Below are positions 16,611-61,961 of a stretch of 64,000 bases of DNA, piece after piece. Source of the DNA: Escherichia phage vb_EcoM_bov9_1; sequence record MT884006.2, one strand, 5' to 3'. A model generated the notes under the pieces. It saw only the letters and a list, made by a program, of their open reading frames with translations, was not told where the DNA came from and ran no database searches. Each line of letters starts with the position of its first letter. Position 1 is the stretch's first letter. The position numbers were made by a program, and so were the translations under genes.

Positions 16611-16641
16611 TTTGTGTTCCTCATGTTATGTCAGTAAGACT

Positions 16642-16671
16642 ACTATAACACAACATAAGGAACTTGTAAAC
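16642..16671 (-). promoter_or_regulatory. Early sigma70-type promoter
   Basis: Minus strand GTTTACA - 17 nt - TATAGT with TGT extended -10; nearly identical to the alc promoter. Confidence 0.55.
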
Positions 16672-18728
16672 TACATTTTGAACTTTTTAGACATTCCGTT
16701 GATGTTAACCAAAGAAGCTAAGATTTGAGAAACTTCGTTTTCCTCTTCTTTTGATTCTTCTACAAGGAATTGATTAAATCCAGCCATTGGACGAACTTCA
16801 CCAGTTTCCATCAGATGGTCGCCATCATATACTGATTCTTCTAATTGTTCAGAAGGAGGAACGATTGTACCTTCGATTAGATACTTGTTATAAGCAGTTT
16901 CTTTCATCATGTACGTACTTACTTTATTAATCTTCAGTAAAATTCCACGCGGCAAAATAACTTCAGCTTCGGATGGAAATCCTGATAAATGACCTGGAAC
17001 GATAACTTTAACTCGTTCAGCTCCTTTAATTACCATACCTACATTAGTTTCAGCGTCTTCATTCGCATATGTAGAATGACTACCCATATGCATTAAATCT
17101 TCAGCATCAACTGAACCTTCTCCTTCACCAGAAAATACTGCTCCGGAATCATCTAAGGCCATATAATTTTTACCATATTCACCGAAGATATTTGGCTTGA
17201 GTGAAGTAGATACAAAGTTCTTGAAATAGAACATTTTATTTTCTATATTATGACGTAAAGTTTTAAAGGTAACTTCTTGCCCACGATAAAGAGTAGTTCC
17301 TGGAGGAAGAACTGAACCTTTAGAAAATGCAGAATCCAGCGTCTCAATATGTTTAATAGCTCGTTCCATATATTCTTCACGGGTAGAATCAGGTTTACCT
17401 AGAAGGAACGAGTTCATTTCAACATATGAATCTGCGCAATAATCTTCAATTACATCAGACTCAGCCTGAGTTAATCCTTTTGGAGTTACTTCAGTGCTTG
17501 CATATTCATATGCCTGAGCAGCAGATTCATCAATTAATTTATAAATTCCATTCATTACAAATTGAATAATAGCTGTCTTTTCATCTGGTGTAGCTTTAGA
17601 ACCTTTAACTAAATCATTGACAATTTTCTTAATAACATCAAAGCTATTAGAAATATTAATGTCAGCAAGATCGCTTAAAATTTTATCAGTTTTATAATCA
17701 AAGAATTCTTTATTCTTTAAATATTCTTGAGAACCTTGATATGTTATATCGCTCTGCAGCTTGATAGATGGATCGCGTAAACGTGCATGGGCCAATGCAA
17801 TATGATTTCGGAAGCTTTCGAGTTCATAATCACTAGATTTAAAACGAGAAGCACTTCTCATACCACCGATAGCTCCTTTGCTAAAGTTTGAACCAACCTG
17901 AATAACGCCAGAGTTCATTGGTCCTTCTGCTTTATATACCGGAACTTTAGATTCAAACTCTTGATATTTCTTAGCAGCGAAGCTATCACCCTGAAGTGAA
18001 GCATCAACAGTAGAATATTGAGCTTGTGCTGCTAATCGACGACTAATTTTAGTTTTCTGAATAACAGCTTGATCCGTGCGCTTATCATTTTCTAAAGCAA
18101 TAGAAGCAGCAACAGCAACAGCTTTAGGAACAGCATTACCTGTTTTAACGTCTACATAAACATCACCAACCTTTGATTCAACTTTTGTGAATAACTCGGT
18201 TGAAATAGGAGGTACACCTGGAATGTCTTCTAAATTGGCATTTTTACGGTAAACCATAATATATGCGTACTTTTTATCATAATCCCAGATTTCCTTTAAA
18301 AGAACATATCGACCTGCTCCTTTAGTACGTACTAAACGGTCAGCAATAACTTGCATTTGCCGAGCAGCGCCATTTGTTTTACTTTTTAGTACGCGGAATA
18401 AGCATGCATCAATTTTATACTGTTTCATTGTTTGAAGAGCAGTATCAAAAACAGCATTAATGACGCCAATTGGATTTCCACCCAAGTTTTTAAGCTTAAC
18501 TAATGATAGTTTCTCATTAACACCTATCATTACGATATGCATCATTTTGTCGCCTGGCTTAACGTTTTTATTCGTATCACCGCCAGAGGTGTATGTACAA
18601 AATCTAAATCCAGGAAGCACGCTTTCTTCACCTGCTTGAATAGCAAAAATTTGAGGTATTTTATGCTTAGGATTTAAGTTAACAACCGGCGCCGAAGCGC
18701 CGTCAAATAATTCTGTAATAAGTTCCAT
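16671..18728 (-). CDS. alt: Alt-family ADP-ribosyltransferase (head-packaged)
   Basis: 685 aa; N-terminus MELITELFD; ART signature R (TLYRGQ), STS (FVSTSL), ExE (SEAEV). Confidence 0.88.
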   Translation of the reverse strand: MELITELFDGASAPVVNLNPKHKIPQIFAIQAGEESVLPGFRFCTYTSGGDTNKNVKPGDKMMHIVMIGVNEKLSLVKLKNLGGNPIGVINAVFDTALQTMKQYKIDACLFRVLKSKTNGAARQMQVIADRLVRTKGAGRYVLLKEIWDYDKKYAYIMVYRKNANLEDIPGVPPISTELFTKVESKVGDVYVDVKTGNAVPKAVAVAASIALENDKRTDQAVIQKTKISRRLAAQAQYSTVDASLQGDSFAAKKYQEFESKVPVYKAEGPMNSGVIQVGSNFSKGAIGGMRSASRFKSSDYELESFRNHIALAHARLRDPSIKLQSDITYQGSQEYLKNKEFFDYKTDKILSDLADINISNSFDVIKKIVNDLVKGSKATPDEKTAIIQFVMNGIYKLIDESAAQAYEYASTEVTPKGLTQAESDVIEDYCADSYVEMNSFLLGKPDSTREEYMERAIKHIETLDSAFSKGSVLPPGTTLYRGQEVTFKTLRHNIENKMFYFKNFVSTSLKPNIFGEYGKNYMALDDSGAVFSGEGEGSVDAEDLMHMGSHSTYANEDAETNVGMVIKGAERVKVIVPGHLSGFPSEAEVILPRGILLKINKVSTYMMKETAYNKYLIEGTIVPPSEQLEESVYDGDHLMETGEVRPMAGFNQFLVEESKEEENEVSQILASLVNINGMSKKFKM

Positions 18729-18731
18729 GAT

Positions 18732-20825
18732 TTATCCTTGAACGAACTTGTAAGGCATGTTTGTAATATCTATGCAAGACGCAATAATTCCAAGAGATGA
18801 TTCTACTTTCTGTTTAATATTTGATGAAACAAATGATGCAAAGTCAACTCTGTCTTCTATTTCAATATCACCTGTCATTGCAGCCAATTCACCAGTTTCC
18901 ATTAAATGGTCTCCATCATAGATTACCGATTCGGTGAGCTCTTCCGTGGTCATAACTTCAGCTTGAATGAGTTTTGTATTATTAGATGTTGTTCCGTCAT
19001 TATTAGAAGCATCGGTTATTTTATTAACTTTGACCATCAATCCACGCGGTAGAATAACTTCAGCTTCTGTTGCTATTCCGAGACTTCCTGGATATACAAC
19101 ATTAACTTTATGAGCTCCATCAATTGCCCATCCTATTTGAACTTTAACATATTCAGGATTTTCTTTATACGCTCTTATTTCGTTTGGATTAATAGTTATT
19201 CCTTCTTCATTTTTATCAACTGTTAATTCATTGCGAGCTTCTGGTTCTAAAAGACCAATACCAGCATGTGTGATTCCAAAACGTCCAAAAATGATAGGAG
19301 TTAAAGAAGTAGATACAAAATTTCTGAAGTAGAACACTTTATTTTTAACTAACGCTTCATATATAGGAGCAGTCATACTTTGAGCACGATAAACTGTAAT
19401 GCCTTCTGGTATACGGTCACCATTTTCAAAAGCTGAATCTAAGTTATTTATAGCAGATTCAATTTCTTTTTCACTCATTACATCGTATCGTTCTGGATTG
19501 TAACGACCTAAAAGAAGATTATTGATGTCAGTATATCCTGATCCACAATACTCTCTAATGCCGCGCTTTTGCGATGGAGTATATTTAGAACCATCACGTG
19601 CAATGGTAATATCAATCATTGGACCTGCACCAATTCCAGAAAAGCTATAAATCATTCGTTTGAGGAATTTAGTTTTTGCTGCGTTCCAGGAATTTTTAGT
19701 TATTTCTTCCCAGACTTCATCTGGCTGCCCTTTACGAGTTTTATTATGTTTATCAAGCCAATTATCTTTATATTCTTCAAATAATTGATTAACAGCTGCT
19801 GCGTATTTCTCTAAACATTTTATTGAAGTAGTTGGTTCATTTTTAATCGCATTAAGAATTACATCTTTAATTTTTTCAGAAACTTCATTAACCTCACTTT
19901 TTAAAAAGAATTTATAGTCATAGTGAAGTTCATCTGCGGTTCCTTCGGCAATAATTTTTGCTGCCTTAGTTTTAGAAGCTAATGAATTAATTCCAAGCTT
20001 CATTTCTTCTGCTTCGGGAATTAAAGGAGCTGTAGCAGGTTTATTGAAATTAGCTGCGGTAGATTCATATTTCTGGAATAATTCGCTTTCAAATCTAGAA
20101 GATTCTAATGACTGACTTTGTGCAATTGCTCTACGGGAAATTTTAACTTTAACGATAACAGCTTGGTCAGAGCGTTTATCATTTTCTTGTGCAATAGATG
20201 CTGCAATTGCCTCATTTTTAGTTACTTGAGCTCCAGTATCTTTATTGATATAAACATCGCCGACTTTCGATTCAACCTTAGTAAAGAGCTCGGTACTAAT
20301 TTCAGGAACTCCTGGAATGTCTTCTAGTGATACATTTTTGCGATGTATAAGAATATATGCGTACTTTTTATCATAATCCCAGAGTTCCTTAAGAAGGACG
20401 TATCTGCCACCTGAACGACTACGGATAAGTCTATCAGCAATAACTTGAATTTGTCGAGCTTGACCAGCAGTTTTAGACTTAAGAATACGAAGCATACAGG
20501 CATCAATTTTATACTGACGCATCGTCTGCATTGCAACAGTAAAAACTGAATTGATGTAATTAATTGGGCTTGGACCGAGACCTTTTAATTTAGCAATTGA
20601 ACCTTTAGCAGTTAATGTAAAAGGAACAATATGCATCATTTTATCGCCCATTTTTAAATCGCGATTAGTATCACCTCCAGATGTATAGGTACATAAACGA
20701 AAGCCTGGTTGTTCAATTGCATCATCAACATGAACTGAAAAAATTTGTGGTATTTTCTTCTTTGGATTTAAGTTTGTAATCGGAAGAGTAGTATCTTCGT
20801 CAAATAATTCTGTAATAAGTTCCAT
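18732..20825 (-). CDS. Alt-family ADP-ribosyltransferase, tandem paralogue
   Basis: 697 aa; same N-terminal 200 aa pattern; R (TVYRAQ), STS (FVSTSL), ExE (TEAEV); 3-nt gap to downstream alt. Confidence 0.85.
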   Translation of the reverse strand: MELITELFDEDTTLPITNLNPKKKIPQIFSVHVDDAIEQPGFRLCTYTSGGDTNRDLKMGDKMMHIVPFTLTAKGSIAKLKGLGPSPINYINSVFTVAMQTMRQYKIDACMLRILKSKTAGQARQIQVIADRLIRSRSGGRYVLLKELWDYDKKYAYILIHRKNVSLEDIPGVPEISTELFTKVESKVGDVYINKDTGAQVTKNEAIAASIAQENDKRSDQAVIVKVKISRRAIAQSQSLESSRFESELFQKYESTAANFNKPATAPLIPEAEEMKLGINSLASKTKAAKIIAEGTADELHYDYKFFLKSEVNEVSEKIKDVILNAIKNEPTTSIKCLEKYAAAVNQLFEEYKDNWLDKHNKTRKGQPDEVWEEITKNSWNAAKTKFLKRMIYSFSGIGAGPMIDITIARDGSKYTPSQKRGIREYCGSGYTDINNLLLGRYNPERYDVMSEKEIESAINNLDSAFENGDRIPEGITVYRAQSMTAPIYEALVKNKVFYFRNFVSTSLTPIIFGRFGITHAGIGLLEPEARNELTVDKNEEGITINPNEIRAYKENPEYVKVQIGWAIDGAHKVNVVYPGSLGIATEAEVILPRGLMVKVNKITDASNNDGTTSNNTKLIQAEVMTTEELTESVIYDGDHLMETGELAAMTGDIEIEDRVDFASFVSSNIKQKVESSLGIIASCIDITNMPYKFVQG

Positions 20826-31585: not shown

Positions 31586-31616
31586 CATAAAGTCCTCATG
31601 TTATGTCAGTAAGACT

Positions 31617-31646
31617 ACTATAACACAACACGAGGGACTTGTAAAC
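31617..31646 (-). promoter_or_regulatory. Early promoter for alc
   Basis: Minus strand GTTTACA - 17 nt - TATAGT, TGT extended -10, then GAGGA site. Confidence 0.55.
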
Positions 31647-40716: not shown

Positions 40717-40746
40717 ATAGTATCACACTACTACCCTTCTGTAAAC
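40717..40746 (-). promoter_or_regulatory. Early promoter
   Basis: Minus strand GTTTACA - 17 nt - TACTAT, TGA extended -10. Confidence 0.55.
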
Positions 40747-41126
40747 TACTTTTTGAAAGTTTTTCGCAAAAGTTCAATGATTTCGTCTACATTATTTTCG
40801 TCAACAATGCAGTGAATTTTTGTTACGCCAGAAACCTTGTCTTTGACTTCATCTTCTTCAGAAGTCGGTTCTTTATACTCACGAAAACAATGAAATTCAT
40901 CTTCGCAAATTTCTAAAAGTCTATCTTTGAGGTAAAAATGCTTTCCATTAGCACATTCAATATGTTTTACCGCTTTAAATCCATTAGTAAAGAAAACTTC
41001 TTTAACTTCAAACCACCCGCCATTTTCTCGAATAATTTTAACTATTGACGCGTTGGATCGTGGGCTATAATTAATAAATGTATCAATAAGTCTTGGAACA
41101 AGTTCATACTTTTTGCCAATATACAT
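40746..41126 (-). CDS. Hypothetical protein, 126 aa, possible accessory insert
   Basis: ATG verified; GAGGAAAACG site; hairpin upstream. Confidence 0.55.
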   Translation of the reverse strand: MYIGKKYELVPRLIDTFINYSPRSNASIVKIIRENGGWFEVKEVFFTNGFKAVKHIECANGKHFYLKDRLLEICEDEFHCFREYKEPTSEEDEVKDKVSGVTKIHCIVDENNVDEIIELLRKTFKK

Positions 41127-41170
41127 TACGTTTTCCTCATTTTAACGGGGCTGTAATAGCCCCTTGATAA

Positions 41171-41401
41171 TTATTGTTCAATCAGTCCCATGTAAAATTC
41201 TGCATCTTCAGAATCCATGCCGTCACAATACTCATTAGCCATAAAGCGGGTGAGGTCTTCAAGAGGACCTTCAATGACAATAGAAAAATTGCAATAATTG
41301 GGATCATCGTGAATACTTGTGATACTAAGTTCAGGATAACGATTACGAATAATTTCTTCAATATATTCAAAATCAACGATGTCAATATCAACTTTAGCCA
41401 T
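41171..41401 (-). CDS. Hypothetical acidic protein, 76 aa, possible accessory insert
   Basis: Start moved to ATG 41401 ([11 protein letters not shown]) with AGAGGAAAA site; early promoter upstream. Confidence 0.5.
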
Positions 41402-41435
41402 ATTATTTTCCTCTTTAATCATCAGCAGTATTGCC

Positions 41436-41505
41436 GATAGTTGTATAGTACCACAGTATGCTTTGGTTGTAAACCGTTTTGTGAAAAAATTTTTGAAATA
41501 AAAAA
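41436..41505. repeat. 70-bp exact repeat, copy 1 (contains an early promoter)
   Basis: Identical to 58059-58128; both followed by different GC hairpins. Confidence 0.8.
41445..41474 (-). promoter_or_regulatory. Early promoter inside repeat copy 1
   Basis: Minus strand GTTTACA - 17 nt - TACTAT, TGG extended -10, A/T-rich upstream element. Confidence 0.55.
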
Positions 41506-41524
41506 GGGGACCTCTAGGGTCCCC
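41480..41524 (-). terminator. Terminator after gene 32
   Basis: ggggacccUAGAggucccc then UUUUUUAUUUCAAAAAUUUUUU on minus strand. Confidence 0.65.
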
Positions 41525-41546
41525 AATTAATTAGTAATATAATCTA

Positions 41547-42455
41547 TTAAAGGTCATTCAAAAGGTCATCCAGGTCCGTGTCATCAGCACTAGATGAACT
41601 GCCAGAGCTTGAGCTCATAAAATCATCTTCAGTTTTTGTTTTGAAGTCATCAACATTGAATGCATCCAAATCATCAGCAACTTTATCAGCTTTCTTAGCG
41701 GCAGTTGCTGCGGCACCGCCCATAGCAGCAGTTCCCATAACTTGACTGAACTTAGTGTTCAGTTCTTCAAACGATTTGAATTTATCTTTAGAAGTCATTT
41801 CAGAAAGATCAACCATTTGTTCGAACAGTTCTTTCTGGAAAGATTCATCATCAATGTTTGGAATCGCAGATTGATTCAGGAATTTAGATTCGTCGTAGTT
41901 ACTAAAACCAGAAACTTGTTTAACTTTCAGTACAAAGTTAGCACCTTCCCACGGACAAGTTACATCAACCGGAGTTTCACCCATTTCAACATCAACTGCA
42001 ATCATTGCATTGATTTTATCCCAGATTTTCTTACCGAAGCGGTATTTAAATACTTTACCTTCATTTTCTGGAGCAGCTGGGTCTTTTACTACAAGAATGT
42101 TAGCCCAGTAAGAAGTTTTACGTTTAACAAGACCGTACTCTTTATTGTCAGTGTTATACAAATCATTTTTACTGATGTACTGACATACTGGACAAGAATC
42201 GTAATCACCGTGAGTAGATGAACAGTTTTCGATATACCATTTACCATTTTTCTTGAAACCGTGATTTACAAGAATTGCGAATGGTGCTTGTTCATCATTT
42301 TTAGACGGAAGAAAACGAATTACTGCTTGACCGTTACCCGCATTGTCGAGTTTCAGTTTCCACTCGCCTTTATCTTCAGAAGAAAAACCACCTTTATTTC
42401 CAGCCAGTTTAGCCATTTGTGCAGCGAGTTCAGCAGTAGATTTACGTTTAAACAT
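41547..42455 (-). CDS. 32: gp32 single-stranded DNA-binding protein
   Basis: 302 aa; [50 protein letters not shown]; zinc ligands and acidic Ser/Asp tail. Confidence 0.95.
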
Positions 42456-42546
42456 TTTTATTTCCTTTTTAATTTAATTAACAGTTGGTGCTATGACGAT
42501 GTATGACCTCATAGCTGGTCAGTGAGATAATTATAATCTATTTATA
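42456..42546 (-). promoter_or_regulatory. Gene 32 leader: late promoter plus UUAAA-repeat translational operator
   Basis: Minus-strand TATAAATA (42539-42546); leader ends UUAAUUAAAUUAAAAAGGAAAUAAAAAUG as in the T4 gp32 operator. Confidence 0.5.
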
Positions 42547-42554
42547 ATAAGCAA

Positions 42555-57390: not shown

Positions 57391-58026
57391 TCACAGTTCA
57401 GATGCTACAGTGATTACTGCTTCAATGTTTTCTGCCGAGCGTTTAATATCAAGATACACATTACCGTTTTTAGCGATTTTACATGACATTCCGATGTCAG
57501 TAAATTTCTGAATATGGTGTTCCATCATTTTGTATCCAAAAATTCGCATATTTCCATTGTTGTTAATTTCAAAATTACGAATTCCGTGAGTGCGTTTTTC
57601 TAAAATAGCGAGATAGTTACTACGATAAGTTTCAACCTTTTTAAGAACAAATCCATTTTCATCTAAAAGTTTTAACATGAAGTCTTTATCTTCTTCCATA
57701 TCGGAAGTAATCTCACGAGCTTTACGAGTTGCTCGTTTTTTCAGCAGTTCCGGAGCATTTTCCTGCGCGTATAAAGTTGCTGCATTTGAAATAATATCCT
57801 GAGCTTCACCAGTAATGATTAATCCATCACCAGATTTCTCCACCAGGCCTTTTTTAATCAATACCCCAATATTACTATTAACTACTGCGTTACCTAAATC
57901 TGGATGCACCTCACGAACTTCTGCAGCTGTAATGAAATCTTTCTTAGCAATGGTAATTAAAATCGCAGCAGTTTTTTCATTCAGAACATCGTTAGAAGCT
58001 TTGATGATGTAAGTTACTTTAGACAT
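57391..58026 (-). CDS. motA: MotA middle-promoter transcription activator
   Basis: 211 aa; MSKVTYIIKASNDVLNEKTAAILITIAKKDFITAAEVREVHPDLGNAVV. Confidence 0.93.
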   Translation of the reverse strand: MSKVTYIIKASNDVLNEKTAAILITIAKKDFITAAEVREVHPDLGNAVVNSNIGVLIKKGLVEKSGDGLIITGEAQDIISNAATLYAQENAPELLKKRATRKAREITSDMEEDKDFMLKLLDENGFVLKKVETYRSNYLAILEKRTHGIRNFEINNNGNMRIFGYKMMEHHIQKFTDIGMSCKIAKNGNVYLDIKRSAENIEAVITVASEL

Positions 58027-58058
58027 TTTTTAATCTCCGTAATTCTGTATCAGTAGTT

Positions 58059-58128
58059 GATAGTTGTATAGTACCACAGTATGCTTTGGTTGTAAACCGT
58101 TTTGTGAAAAAATTTTTGAAATAAAAAA
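58059..58128. repeat. 70-bp exact repeat, copy 2 (contains motA early promoter)
   Basis: Identical to 41436-41505. Confidence 0.8.
58068..58097 (-). promoter_or_regulatory. Early promoter for motA
   Basis: Minus strand GTTTACA - 17 nt - TACTAT, TGG extended -10. Confidence 0.6.
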
Positions 58129-58150
58129 AGGGAGAGCCTCGGCTCTCCCT
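58110..58150 (-). terminator. Terminator after gene 52 and the small ORF
   Basis: agggagagccGAGGcucucccu then UUUUUUUAUUUCAAAAAUUUUUU on minus strand. Confidence 0.6.
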
Positions 58151-58154
58151 AAAA

Positions 58155-58304
58155 TTACTGCATGACTGTGATAACTGTCATGATAACACGTTGAATTCCG
58201 AACGCAAGAAGACCTCCTGCTACGGCTGGAACAACGCCTAAACCCGCCAGTAAAATGCTACCAGATACTAATGCAGCGCTTGTAATACCAATGAATGGAC
58301 TCAT
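58155..58304 (-). CDS. Small hydrophobic peptide, 49 aa, below track cutoff
   Basis: ATGA coupling with gene 52 stop; MSPFIGITSAALVSGSILLAGLGVVPAVAGGLLAFGIQRVIMTVITVMQ. Confidence 0.4.
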   Translation of the reverse strand: MSPFIGITSAALVSGSILLAGLGVVPAVAGGLLAFGIQRVIMTVITVMQ

Positions 58305-61207: not shown

Positions 61208-61237
61208 ATAGTACCACGGAAGAACAGTCTTGTAAAC
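61208..61237 (-). promoter_or_regulatory. Early promoter
   Basis: Minus strand GTTTACA - 17 nt - TACTAT, TGG extended -10. Confidence 0.55.
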
Positions 61238-61243
61238 AACTTT

Positions 61244-61342
61244 TTAAAAATATTCGTAATAAATGTGAATACCAATCACCACTGCTGAAACCTGTGCAAC
61301 CCACCACGCACAAGCAATAAGTACAGAATTCAAAATTTTCAT
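61244..61342 (-). CDS. Tiny hydrophobic peptide, 32 aa
   Basis: ATGA coupling to upstream tiny ORF; MKILNSVLIACAWWVAQVSAVVIGIHIYYEYF. Confidence 0.3.
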   Translation of the reverse strand: MKILNSVLIACAWWVAQVSAVVIGIHIYYEYF

Positions 61343-61425
61343 AATAACCTCATCACAAAAGTAAATGTTAAACAAATTAATGGAATACTAATTAACCAAA
61401 CAAAACACCACCATAATGAACTCAT
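61339..61425 (-). CDS. Tiny hydrophobic peptide, 28 aa
   Basis: ATGA coupling to upstream 87-aa ORF; MSSLWWCFVWLISIPLICLTFTFVMRLL. Confidence 0.3.
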   Translation of the reverse strand: MSSLWWCFVWLISIPLICLTFTFVMRLL

Positions 61426-61685
61426 AGTTCAATCTCAGCGATTTTCATTTCATTACTATTAATAGCCTCTTTAAGACTATCCGAAAGAATTACATTCCAG
61501 TGGTCATTCATATGACCATTAACTAAGCGTGTAATTTCTTCAGGAGTTGAAAAATAAGGCTGATCAGACTCCCAATGCGATAATCCTAAGCGAGTATAAA
61601 TCATACCTTCATCATCGCTAGAATATTCAACTGACACAAACTCATCAGTTATTTTATGCTTAGCATAATAAAATTTAAATTTCAT
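61422..61685 (-). CDS. Hypothetical protein, 87 aa
   Basis: Start moved to ATG 61685 (track used TTG 61694). Confidence 0.5.
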   Translation of the reverse strand: MKFKFYYAKHKITDEFVSVEYSSDDEGMIYTRLGLSHWESDQPYFSTPEEITRLVNGHMNDHWNVILSDSLKEAINSNEMKIAEIEL

Positions 61686-61690
61686 TTTAC

Positions 61691-61897
61691 TCAATAATCC
61701 GCTAAAAGATCAACGATTGCATCACGAAGACACTTATTTGCAATACGTTTAAGAGCAATTTCAGTTTCTGGAGCATTTTGAATAATCATCGAATTCAACT
61801 CAGCCTCAGCAAACTGAAGTTCTTTAACTAATTCAGCTTTATATTTTCCTTGCCCTTTCTTAGCTTTTGCTCGTTTTAATTCAGCTGTAGTAAACAT
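61691..61897 (-). CDS. Hypothetical protein, 68 aa
   Basis: Start moved to ATG 61897 with GGAGAAT site; track extension runs through an early promoter. Confidence 0.5.
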   Translation of the reverse strand: MFTTAELKRAKAKKGQGKYKAELVKELQFAEAELNSMIIQNAPETEIALKRIANKCLRDAIVDLLADY

Positions 61898-61931
61898 TTT
61901 ATTCTCCAAATCCGTATCAGTTGATAGTTGT

Positions 61932-61961
61932 ATAGTACCACAGTCCTTGTGGTATGTAAAC
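61932..61961 (-). promoter_or_regulatory. Early promoter
   Basis: Minus strand GTTTACA - 17 nt - TACTAT, TGG extended -10; related to the 70-bp repeat. Confidence 0.55.

Follow-up and report, generated by a model that had tools for sequence, protein, structure and literature searches.

A predicted early promoter ahead of frd.3 and another ahead of motA, 16.6 kb apart in the genome of a Tequatrovirus, share an identical stretch of 70 nucleotides, and we consider it highly probable that these twin promoter-early stem-loop (PeSL) cassettes were made identical by ectopic, short-patch transfer of a promoter segment. The DNA analysed, referred to below as the window, is a stretch of 64,000 nucleotides equal to the final 64 kb of our reference record, bov10K1 (MT884007.2; record position = window position + 102364). 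The 70-mer is a direct repeat at an offset of 16,623 bp. It occurs only twice in the whole window, and a match of this kind was obtained in 0 of 100 shuffled sequences, confirming the exact repeat at two distant loci that a first-pass annotation had reported. At the left end identity stops at ..attgcc|GATAG versus ..gtagtt|GATAG, where the leaders differ; at the right end it stops where the hairpins differ, and allowing one extra A lengthens the match to 75 nt at 99%. Beyond the 70 nt the flanks of both copies are unrelated, except for a GGGA shifted by one base.

How are the two copies built? All genes around them lie on the minus strand. Read on this strand, each copy runs from a terminator U-tract through an A/T-rich UP region, the -35 element TTTACA, a 17-nt spacer and a TG-extended -10 element, TACTAT, into the start region (Table 1). 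The repeat begins as the U-tract of the preceding terminator, so that the U-tract of the gene 32 terminator consists of the first bases of copy 1, and it ends about 9 nt past the -10 element. An early promoter had been claimed for each copy, and TTTACA-N17-TACTAT with its TG is indeed found in both, with ttttttatttcaaaaattttttcacaaaacgg as the A/T-rich stretch directly upstream of TTTACA. T4 early promoters form a UP/-35/TGn/-10 class, and motA is an early gene (PMC2988021); all four elements of this class are present in both copies. The fPS-65 site orthologous to copy 2 is annotated as 'predicted early promoter'. Both exact copies are intergenic, copy 1 separating gene 32 from frd.3 and copy 2 separating motA.1 from motA, and a Shine-Dalgarno sequence (SD) lies 5–9 nt ahead of the ATG.

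Table 1. Promoter, terminator and gene features at the two exact copies and the three diverged copies (window coordinates).
Feature	Position	Strand	Basis
Repeat copy 1, frd.3 early promoter (predicted)	41436..41505	-	sequence, promoter scan
Copy 1 U-tract and A/T-rich UP region	41474-41505	-	
Copy 1 -35, TTTACA	41468-41473	-	
Copy 1 17-nt spacer, allele M, accaaagcatactgtgg	41451-41467	-	
Copy 1 TG-extended -10, TACTAT	41445-41450	-	
Copy 1 start region, acaactatc	41436-41444	-	
Gene 32 intrinsic terminator hairpin (predicted) GGGGACCCTAGAGGTCCCC, 7-bp stem (6 GC)	41506..41524	-	terminator scan; folding -14.3 kcal/mol
Gene 32, ssDNA-binding protein; gene ended by copy 1 hairpin (predicted)	41547..42455	-	
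frd.3 leader, locus-specific, with SD (ggcaatactgctgatgattaaagaggaaaataat)	41402..41435	-	
frd.3 homologue, predicted to be driven by copy 1; ATG at 41401	41171..41401	-	
Repeat copy 2, motA early promoter (predicted); elements as in copy 1	58059..58128	-	
Copy 2 -35	58091-58096	-	
Copy 2 spacer, allele M	58074-58090	-	
Copy 2 -10	58068-58073	-	
Intrinsic terminator hairpin (predicted) AGGGAGAGCCGAGGCTCTCCCT after motA.1/gene 52, 9-bp stem (6 GC)	58129..58150	-	terminator scan; -19.4 kcal/mol, z -5.2
motA.1, gene upstream of copy 2 terminator	58155..58304	-	
motA leader, locus-specific, GGAG SD (aactactgatacagaattacggagattaaaaa)	58027..58058	-	
motA, predicted to be driven by copy 2; ATG at 58026	57391..58026	-	
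Early promoter (predicted) before frd.1 homologue, directly after frd.2 stop codon; 40/70 identity to repeat	40717..40745	-	promoter scan
Early promoter (predicted) before ndd.4 homologue; 41/70 identity	61208..61236	-	promoter scan
Early promoter (predicted), spacer allele N, just downstream of denB; 49/70 identity	61932..61960	-	promoter scan

The first-pass annotation had each copy followed by a different GC-rich hairpin. The hairpins are locus-specific, as claimed, but the functional strand is the minus strand: because the local genes lie on it, each hairpin stands upstream of its promoter and would be the intrinsic terminator of the preceding gene. Both loci show the intrinsic-terminator pattern of a GC-rich stem and then a U-run, the T-runs after the hairpins being TTTTTTATTT and TTTTTTTATTT. 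A terminator is annotated at the gene 32 site in the G2133 and OE5505 records, and at the motA.1/52 site in those of G2133, OE5505 and fPS-65; a search for Rfam families in 39000-64000 found none. With promoter and terminator activity predicted from sequence, each copy reads as a terminator plus early-promoter PeSL cassette. A factor-independent terminator would end the upstream unit (gene 32, or 52/motA.1), and its U-tract would run into the UP region of a strong, sigma-70-dependent early promoter serving the next unit (frd.3 and onwards, or motA and onwards).

Two further features of these promoters deserve mention. The predicted 5' end of the frd.3 transcript (41402-41440, minus strand) folds into an 8-bp stem (-8.9 kcal/mol, z -4.25); the T4 stem contains a C.A mismatch and no compensating change, and its conservation is doubtful. 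On the plus strand the M spacer (41451-41467 and 58074-58090) reads GTATGCTTTGG and resembles the MotA-box core TGCTTT. The strict MotA box WWWTGCTTTR has no match in the M spacer, and its 8 matches in the window are at the chance level (9 expected); the Hinton review (PMC2988021) makes no mention of motA autoregulation. To call the M spacer a MotA box is speculation.

Diverged copies had been reported near 40717, 61208 and 61932. All three are real, each a minus-strand match to the promoter pattern TTTACA-N17-TACTAT, with the identities of Table 1 taken from an ungapped scan over 70 nt. Calling them the same module is right for the promoter but not for the stem-loop: the strong GC hairpin with a T-run is confined to the two exact copies, and at the three diverged ones the terminator scans found no terminator, with at most a weak AT-rich stem visible by eye. 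The diverged copies, at frd.1, ndd.4 and denB, sit among small ORFs; copy 1 follows the core gene 32, and copy 2 precedes motA. The family of the 70-mer occupies 5–6 places per Tequatrovirus genome.

Why should two promoters 16.6 kb apart be identical base for base, spacer included? We tabulated the spacers in bov10K1, T4, RB14, G2133, OE5505, ACG-C40, ECML-134, IME537 and fPS-65. The T4 (NC_000866.4) motA promoter matches the repeat at 69 of 70 positions, and the T4 frd.3 promoter at 60 of 70, with all differences inside the 17-nt spacer (agcataaagctttatgg in T4, accaaagcatactgtgg here). The observed distribution of alleles over loci and genomes is as follows. At the frd.3 promoter, allele M is carried by bov10K1, RB14 and, with one change, G2133; allele F by T4; allele X (tccttgtccttccatgg) by OE5505, ACG-C40, ECML-134 and T2; and an N-like allele, resembling the promoter just downstream of denB, by IME537. 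The motA/motA.1 promoter has M or near-M in all tabulated phages except OE5505 (M being named for bov10K1, T4, RB14, G2133, ACG-C40 and fPS-65), and OE5505 carries F there, after motA.1. Outside the window, the nrdC.10 promoter has allele F in both T4 and bov10K1; in T4 it is annotated as 'early promoter 54.4', with -10, -35 and a terminator of its own. The twin of the frd.3 promoter is thus the nrdC.10 promoter in T4 and the motA promoter in the window phage.

Could functional constraint alone, with selection holding both promoters at one optimal sequence and no transfer of DNA, account for this pattern? The consensus of T4 early promoters is unusually long (PMC2988021), and in every genome sampled the two loci agree exactly in the blocks on either side of the spacer, as constraint would predict. 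Yet viable phages carry at least four unrelated spacers (M, F, X and N-like) at the frd.3 promoter, the same spacers are found at other loci without a base changed, and the other family members are only 57–70% identical. Since one locus functions with any of four unrelated spacers, convergence cannot explain identical 17-nt spacers at different loci; DNA must therefore have moved between cassettes. We regard constraint alone as barely credible, and the exact identity appears to reflect ectopic short-patch recombination rather than promoter constraint. A C/T variant in the UP region gave no significant within-genome concordance (5 of 7 genomes).

In which direction did the spacer move? Of about 500 Tequatrovirus-type records, 30 (~6%; exact-word megablast) contain an exact match to the 30-mer that spans the junction of the M spacer with the frd.3 leader; they come from several named species and hosts and include RB14, CrRp10, N2 and IsaacDaniel. 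Leader-anchored 72-nt and hairpin-anchored 96–98-nt BLAST queries, whose counts are only estimates since part of the alignments extend across mismatched spacers, give X as the majority allele at frd.3 (roughly 290–336 records) and F there in roughly 47–116, an M-type match of at least 95% at the motA locus in 330 of 502 records, and an F-type match of at least 95% at motA.1 in 19 of 507 (~4%). From this census, with M common at motA and at ~6% at frd.3, we infer transfer from motA to frd.3 as the parsimonious direction. The record T4_ev240 was considered as an evolved T4 with a laboratory-acquired M and rejected, its local layout being bov10K1-like (no segG, extra ORFs); no paper describing T4_ev240 was found.

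The boundaries of the exchanged patch bear on the molecular pathway. These are about 30 nt of identity on one side (U-tract/UP to ~-38) and 17 nt on the other (GGTACTATACAACTATC); beyond them lie a locus-specific hairpin and a locus-specific leader. A patch bounded by such short identities, with locus-specific sequence outside, points to short-patch, non-reciprocal events. The two promoters would be paralogues in which ~30 nt upstream and 17 nt downstream of the variable spacer are common to all Tequatroviruses, and in a lineage including the window phage a motA-type M spacer would have replaced the resident frd.3 spacer, leaving 70 nt of identity. The likely agent is the phage's own machinery for recombination and replication, acting by ectopic homologous recombination that is non-reciprocal and confined to a short patch; gene conversion, template switching in recombination-dependent replication, and cassette insertion followed by excision leaving a chimeric promoter are the candidates. 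A reciprocal crossover would lose 16.6 kb of essential genes, and only conversion products would survive. Blocks of ~30 and 17 nt are below the length usually assumed for efficient homologous recombination. T4 recombination needs less than 50 bp of homology, and in the PeSL model insertion and excision of a cassette leave a chimeric promoter (PMC2839356). The conserved blocks might also act as portable homology for gain and loss of small gene modules beside such promoters.

Did the event take place in the lineage of the window phage itself? A single, ancient origin of M at frd.3 is conceivable, with ordinary phage-phage exchange bringing it to the window phage. That there was no recent ectopic event, the M-type frd.3 promoter being an old allele of the Tequatrovirus pool acquired by recombination with a co-infecting relative, is a serious contender that we place a little short of an even chance. 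It would fit the spread of the exact M/frd.3-leader junction over 30 records, the M allele of RB14, whose frd.3 is 99% identical to that of the window, and the strong mosaicism of Tequatrovirus genomes in frd.2 and frd.3. Such an exchange explains arrival only, however; the first motA-type spacer at frd.3 still needs an ectopic transfer. The two copies agree at 70/70 positions in the window phage, as against 69/71 in RB14 and 64/72 in G2133, which is compatible with later re-homogenisation. An assembly artefact, with the repeat collapsed or copied by the assembler, has a negligible chance: the same M-type frd.3 promoter with the same flanks is found in independent genomes (RB14, CrRp10, N2, IsaacDaniel and others) and both copies lie inside unique, collinear flanks, even if the BYEP01 and IME537 records do show odd deletions exactly at cassettes that are possibly assembly errors.

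In BYEP01 and IME537, terminator/promoter DNA between gene 32 and frd.3 is missing, by deletions of 134 bp and ~83 bp, respectively, and gene 32-frd.3 fusion ORFs are annotated. The BYEP01 deletion starts exactly at base 1 of the repeat, and the motA locus of IME537 is without U-tract, UP region and -35. These cassette losses could be real deletions or assembly artefacts at repeated sequence.

Ectopic short-patch transfer, our preferred reading, relies on general homology. Could a dedicated mobile element have carried the cassette instead, be it a miniature transposon, a homing-endonuclease co-conversion tract or the target of a site-specific recombinase? A homing endonuclease gene, segG, does lie beside gene 32 in T4, OE5505 and ACG-C40, and Citrobacter phage CF1, a member of another genus, has a similar cassette in unrelated gene surroundings. 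The 70-mer, however, has neither terminal inverted repeats nor a target-site duplication, bov10K1 lacks segG, and Arbiol et al. found no dedicated recombinase (PMC2839356). Moreover, the exchanged unit is a sub-part of a promoter between paralogue-conserved blocks, as expected of homology-driven exchange, and we judge a mobile element very unlikely. The interval 42518-42554 is the empty segG site, at which T4, OE5505 and ACG-C40 carry a 623-bp insertion between genes 59 and 32.

Are the repeats also sites of gene shuffling? The first-pass annotation had proposed that the exact copies mark recombination breakpoints. It was right as to the kind of process, given the same 17-nt spacers at different loci in different phages; its gene-shuffling part is borne out only partly, as comparison with relatives supports a breakpoint at copy 2 but not at copy 1. 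ACG-C40 and OE5505 diverge from the window right after ...acaactatcaa of copy 2, where a 345-bp module is inserted. It comprises a new leader, a 75-aa ORF and a second promoter, and is flanked by a 23-nt direct repeat, CTATCAAATAAATGAACTGAAAC. The 75-aa ORF has at least 95% identity in 138 records; the idea that this extra ORF of OE5505 and ACG-C40 is a paralogue of frd.3 was discarded on comparison. At copy 1, in contrast, 480 of 510 records and each of the six relatives compared have an undisturbed gene 32/frd.3 junction. In a 100-bp identity profile, the nearest relative did not change at either of the exact copies. The region 40870-41370 (frd.2 and mid frd.3) is mosaic, with 64–83% identity to T4, ACG-C40 and ECML-134 and 99% to RB14 in parts, whereas the neighbouring gene 32 is uniformly conserved (93–100%); the change falls inside genes, not at the repeat. 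Nor can the exact copies be a shuffling pair with each other, since a crossover between them would delete 59, 33, rnh, genes 34-38, t, asiA and motA (16.6 kb, tail-fibre genes included).

Promoter-adjacent indels are observed at the diverged family members. Immediately downstream of the 40745 promoter there is a 71–84-bp small-ORF indel in T4, OE5505, ACG-C40 and ECML-134, and immediately upstream a 258-bp replacement in G2133. Which gene follows the 61960 promoter varies among relatives, with three different ones observed, and the interval 61236-61960 measures 724 bp in the window and RB14, 279 bp in T4 and ~510 bp in others. By these alignments, all three diverged copies adjoin indels or gene replacements in relatives. 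Against six relatives, 4 of 9 indel sites outside the tail-fibre genes abut promoters of the family.

A broader generalisation is tentative, and we think it rather improbable as formulated: early-promoter cassettes of Tequatroviruses would draw on a pool of sub-modules (hairpin, UP/-35 block, spacer, -10/start block, leader/SD) that are interchangeable across the genome, and ectopic conversion over very short patches, joined within the ~30-nt and 17-nt blocks, would reshuffle them. The frd.3 promoter would be a frequent recipient, because for each of the M, F and N-like spacers a 'home' promoter exists elsewhere. Such reassortment might depend on a specific activity at the cassettes, not on bulk recombination. 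If such a pool existed, promoter swapping would be a regular, possibly selectable means of retuning early-gene expression, and frd.3 could come under motA-like control, the M spacer having a MotA-box-like core TGCTTT on the opposite strand.

Several cassettes beyond the frd.3 and motA pair bear on the same family. The nrdC.10 early promoter (bov10K1 record ~52575, outside the window; T4 U76612.1), with its F spacer in both phages, has a third hairpin (GGGAGCCTTCGGGCTCCC) and shares its leader, base for base, with the 61960 promoter of the window (caactgatacggatttggagaataaaatg). In Citrobacter phage CF1 (Moonvirus), a t32-type hairpin, an F-like spacer and a nrdC.10-type leader together make up a cassette that shares 86% identity with the repeat and hairpin. 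Its neighbours are an ADP-ribosylase gene on one side and a small ORF on the other, a context unrelated to gene 32/frd.3, and its composition shows that sub-modules reassort beyond the genus. A scan of IMG/VR for the t32 hairpin returned 3 contigs only, too few for a survey.

The window holds a second near-identical promoter pair, at 16618-16671 and 31593-31646, 15 kb apart and alike at 51 of 54 nt. On the minus strand, -35, spacer, -10, 5' UTR and SD are all common (GTTTACAAGT..TGTTGTGTTATAGTAGTCTTACTGACATAACATGAGGA). One copy stands before a small ORF beside alt-like genes and the other before an alc homologue, and the pair seems to be a further instance of what is seen with the 70-bp repeat. 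Next to the first copy of this pair, at 16671-18728 and 18732-20825 (minus strand), lie tandem ORFs of ~2.06 and 2.09 kb, 71–80% identical in patches at a spacing of ~2094 bp, which are probably alt-like paralogues; in the part of the T4 record fetched, the equivalent position has one alt gene.

What do the twin cassettes add? They offer a case, at base resolution and with population counts, in which T4-like cassettes, beyond marking gene gain and loss, also appear to exchange internal segments between loci many kilobases apart. The PeSL model would gain a concrete test case, with the motA, nrdC.10 and denB-proximal promoters as putative donors, the frd.3 promoter as putative recipient, and a tract bounded by identities of 17–30 nt; for the 345-bp module with its 23-nt flanking repeats, formation of a mini-circle would be expected. 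In practical terms, identical 70-mers 16.6 kb apart are a hazard in the assembly and engineering of therapeutic-type phages. The underlying biology is already in the literature, and the general significance is modest.

How do these cassettes compare with known systems? The closest are the PeSLs of PST and T4. As described by Comeau, Arbiol & Krisch 2014 (PMC4122927), these have TTTACW-N17-TAYWAT with a stem-loop just upstream and an A/T-rich upstream region, followed by an SD and a start codon. The window cassettes come from the same phage group and agree in consensus, in stem-loop placement, in the A/T-rich upstream region and in the order of SD and start codon, so that the likeness to PeSLs first suggested for them holds in layout and consensus. 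The exchange given there as an example (T4 ndd.4/.5 versus PST ORF268/269) concerns the region of the window's 61236 and 61960 promoters. The text consulted makes no mention of the gene 32/frd.3 or motA cassettes, nor of spacer-only exchange between distant cassettes. Unlike the PST/T4 PeSLs it describes, copy 1 adjoins a core gene and shows no gene-content plasticity.

The PeSLs of RB49 and phi1 (Arbiol et al. 2010, PMC2839356) are composite repeats of promoter and terminator conserved over ~100 bp, proposed and partly shown to serve as homology for excision and insertion of small cassettes, giving rise to chimeric PeSLs. The 345-bp module with 23-nt direct repeats in ACG-C40 and OE5505 fits this excision/insertion model. 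Their promoters are near-perfect TTGACA/TATAAT, and their G(n)-loop-C(n) stems are variably placed, often between -35 and -10; in the window cassettes, by contrast, the hairpins are locus-specific and outside the repeat, which leaves the stem-loop out of the homology that the cassettes share. In the T4 early promoters reviewed by Hinton 2010 (PMC2988021), orthologous sites have the same elements, and motA is early; the class consensus predicts an identity of ~57–70% between members, not 70/70 including an unconstrained spacer.

At the internal-protein (IP) loci of T-even phages (Repoila et al. 1994, in the summary given by PMC2839356), early-promoter elements are tied to replacement of small genes among these phages; the IP loci lie outside the window. 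Similar in principle are Botstein-Campbell 'linkers' and integron-like cassettes, in which short conserved sequences direct exchange to intergenic positions where it is tolerated, the gene arriving with its expression signals, but the window cassettes differ from the integron-like ones in having no integrase or attC-type site, and general homologous recombination is presumed. By layout and consensus, the twin cassettes of the window belong to the published PeSL kind of the T4/PST group, and exchange at the level of the spacer, with the frd.3 promoter as a putative recurrent recipient, is a useful refinement of this kind that will not surprise specialists.
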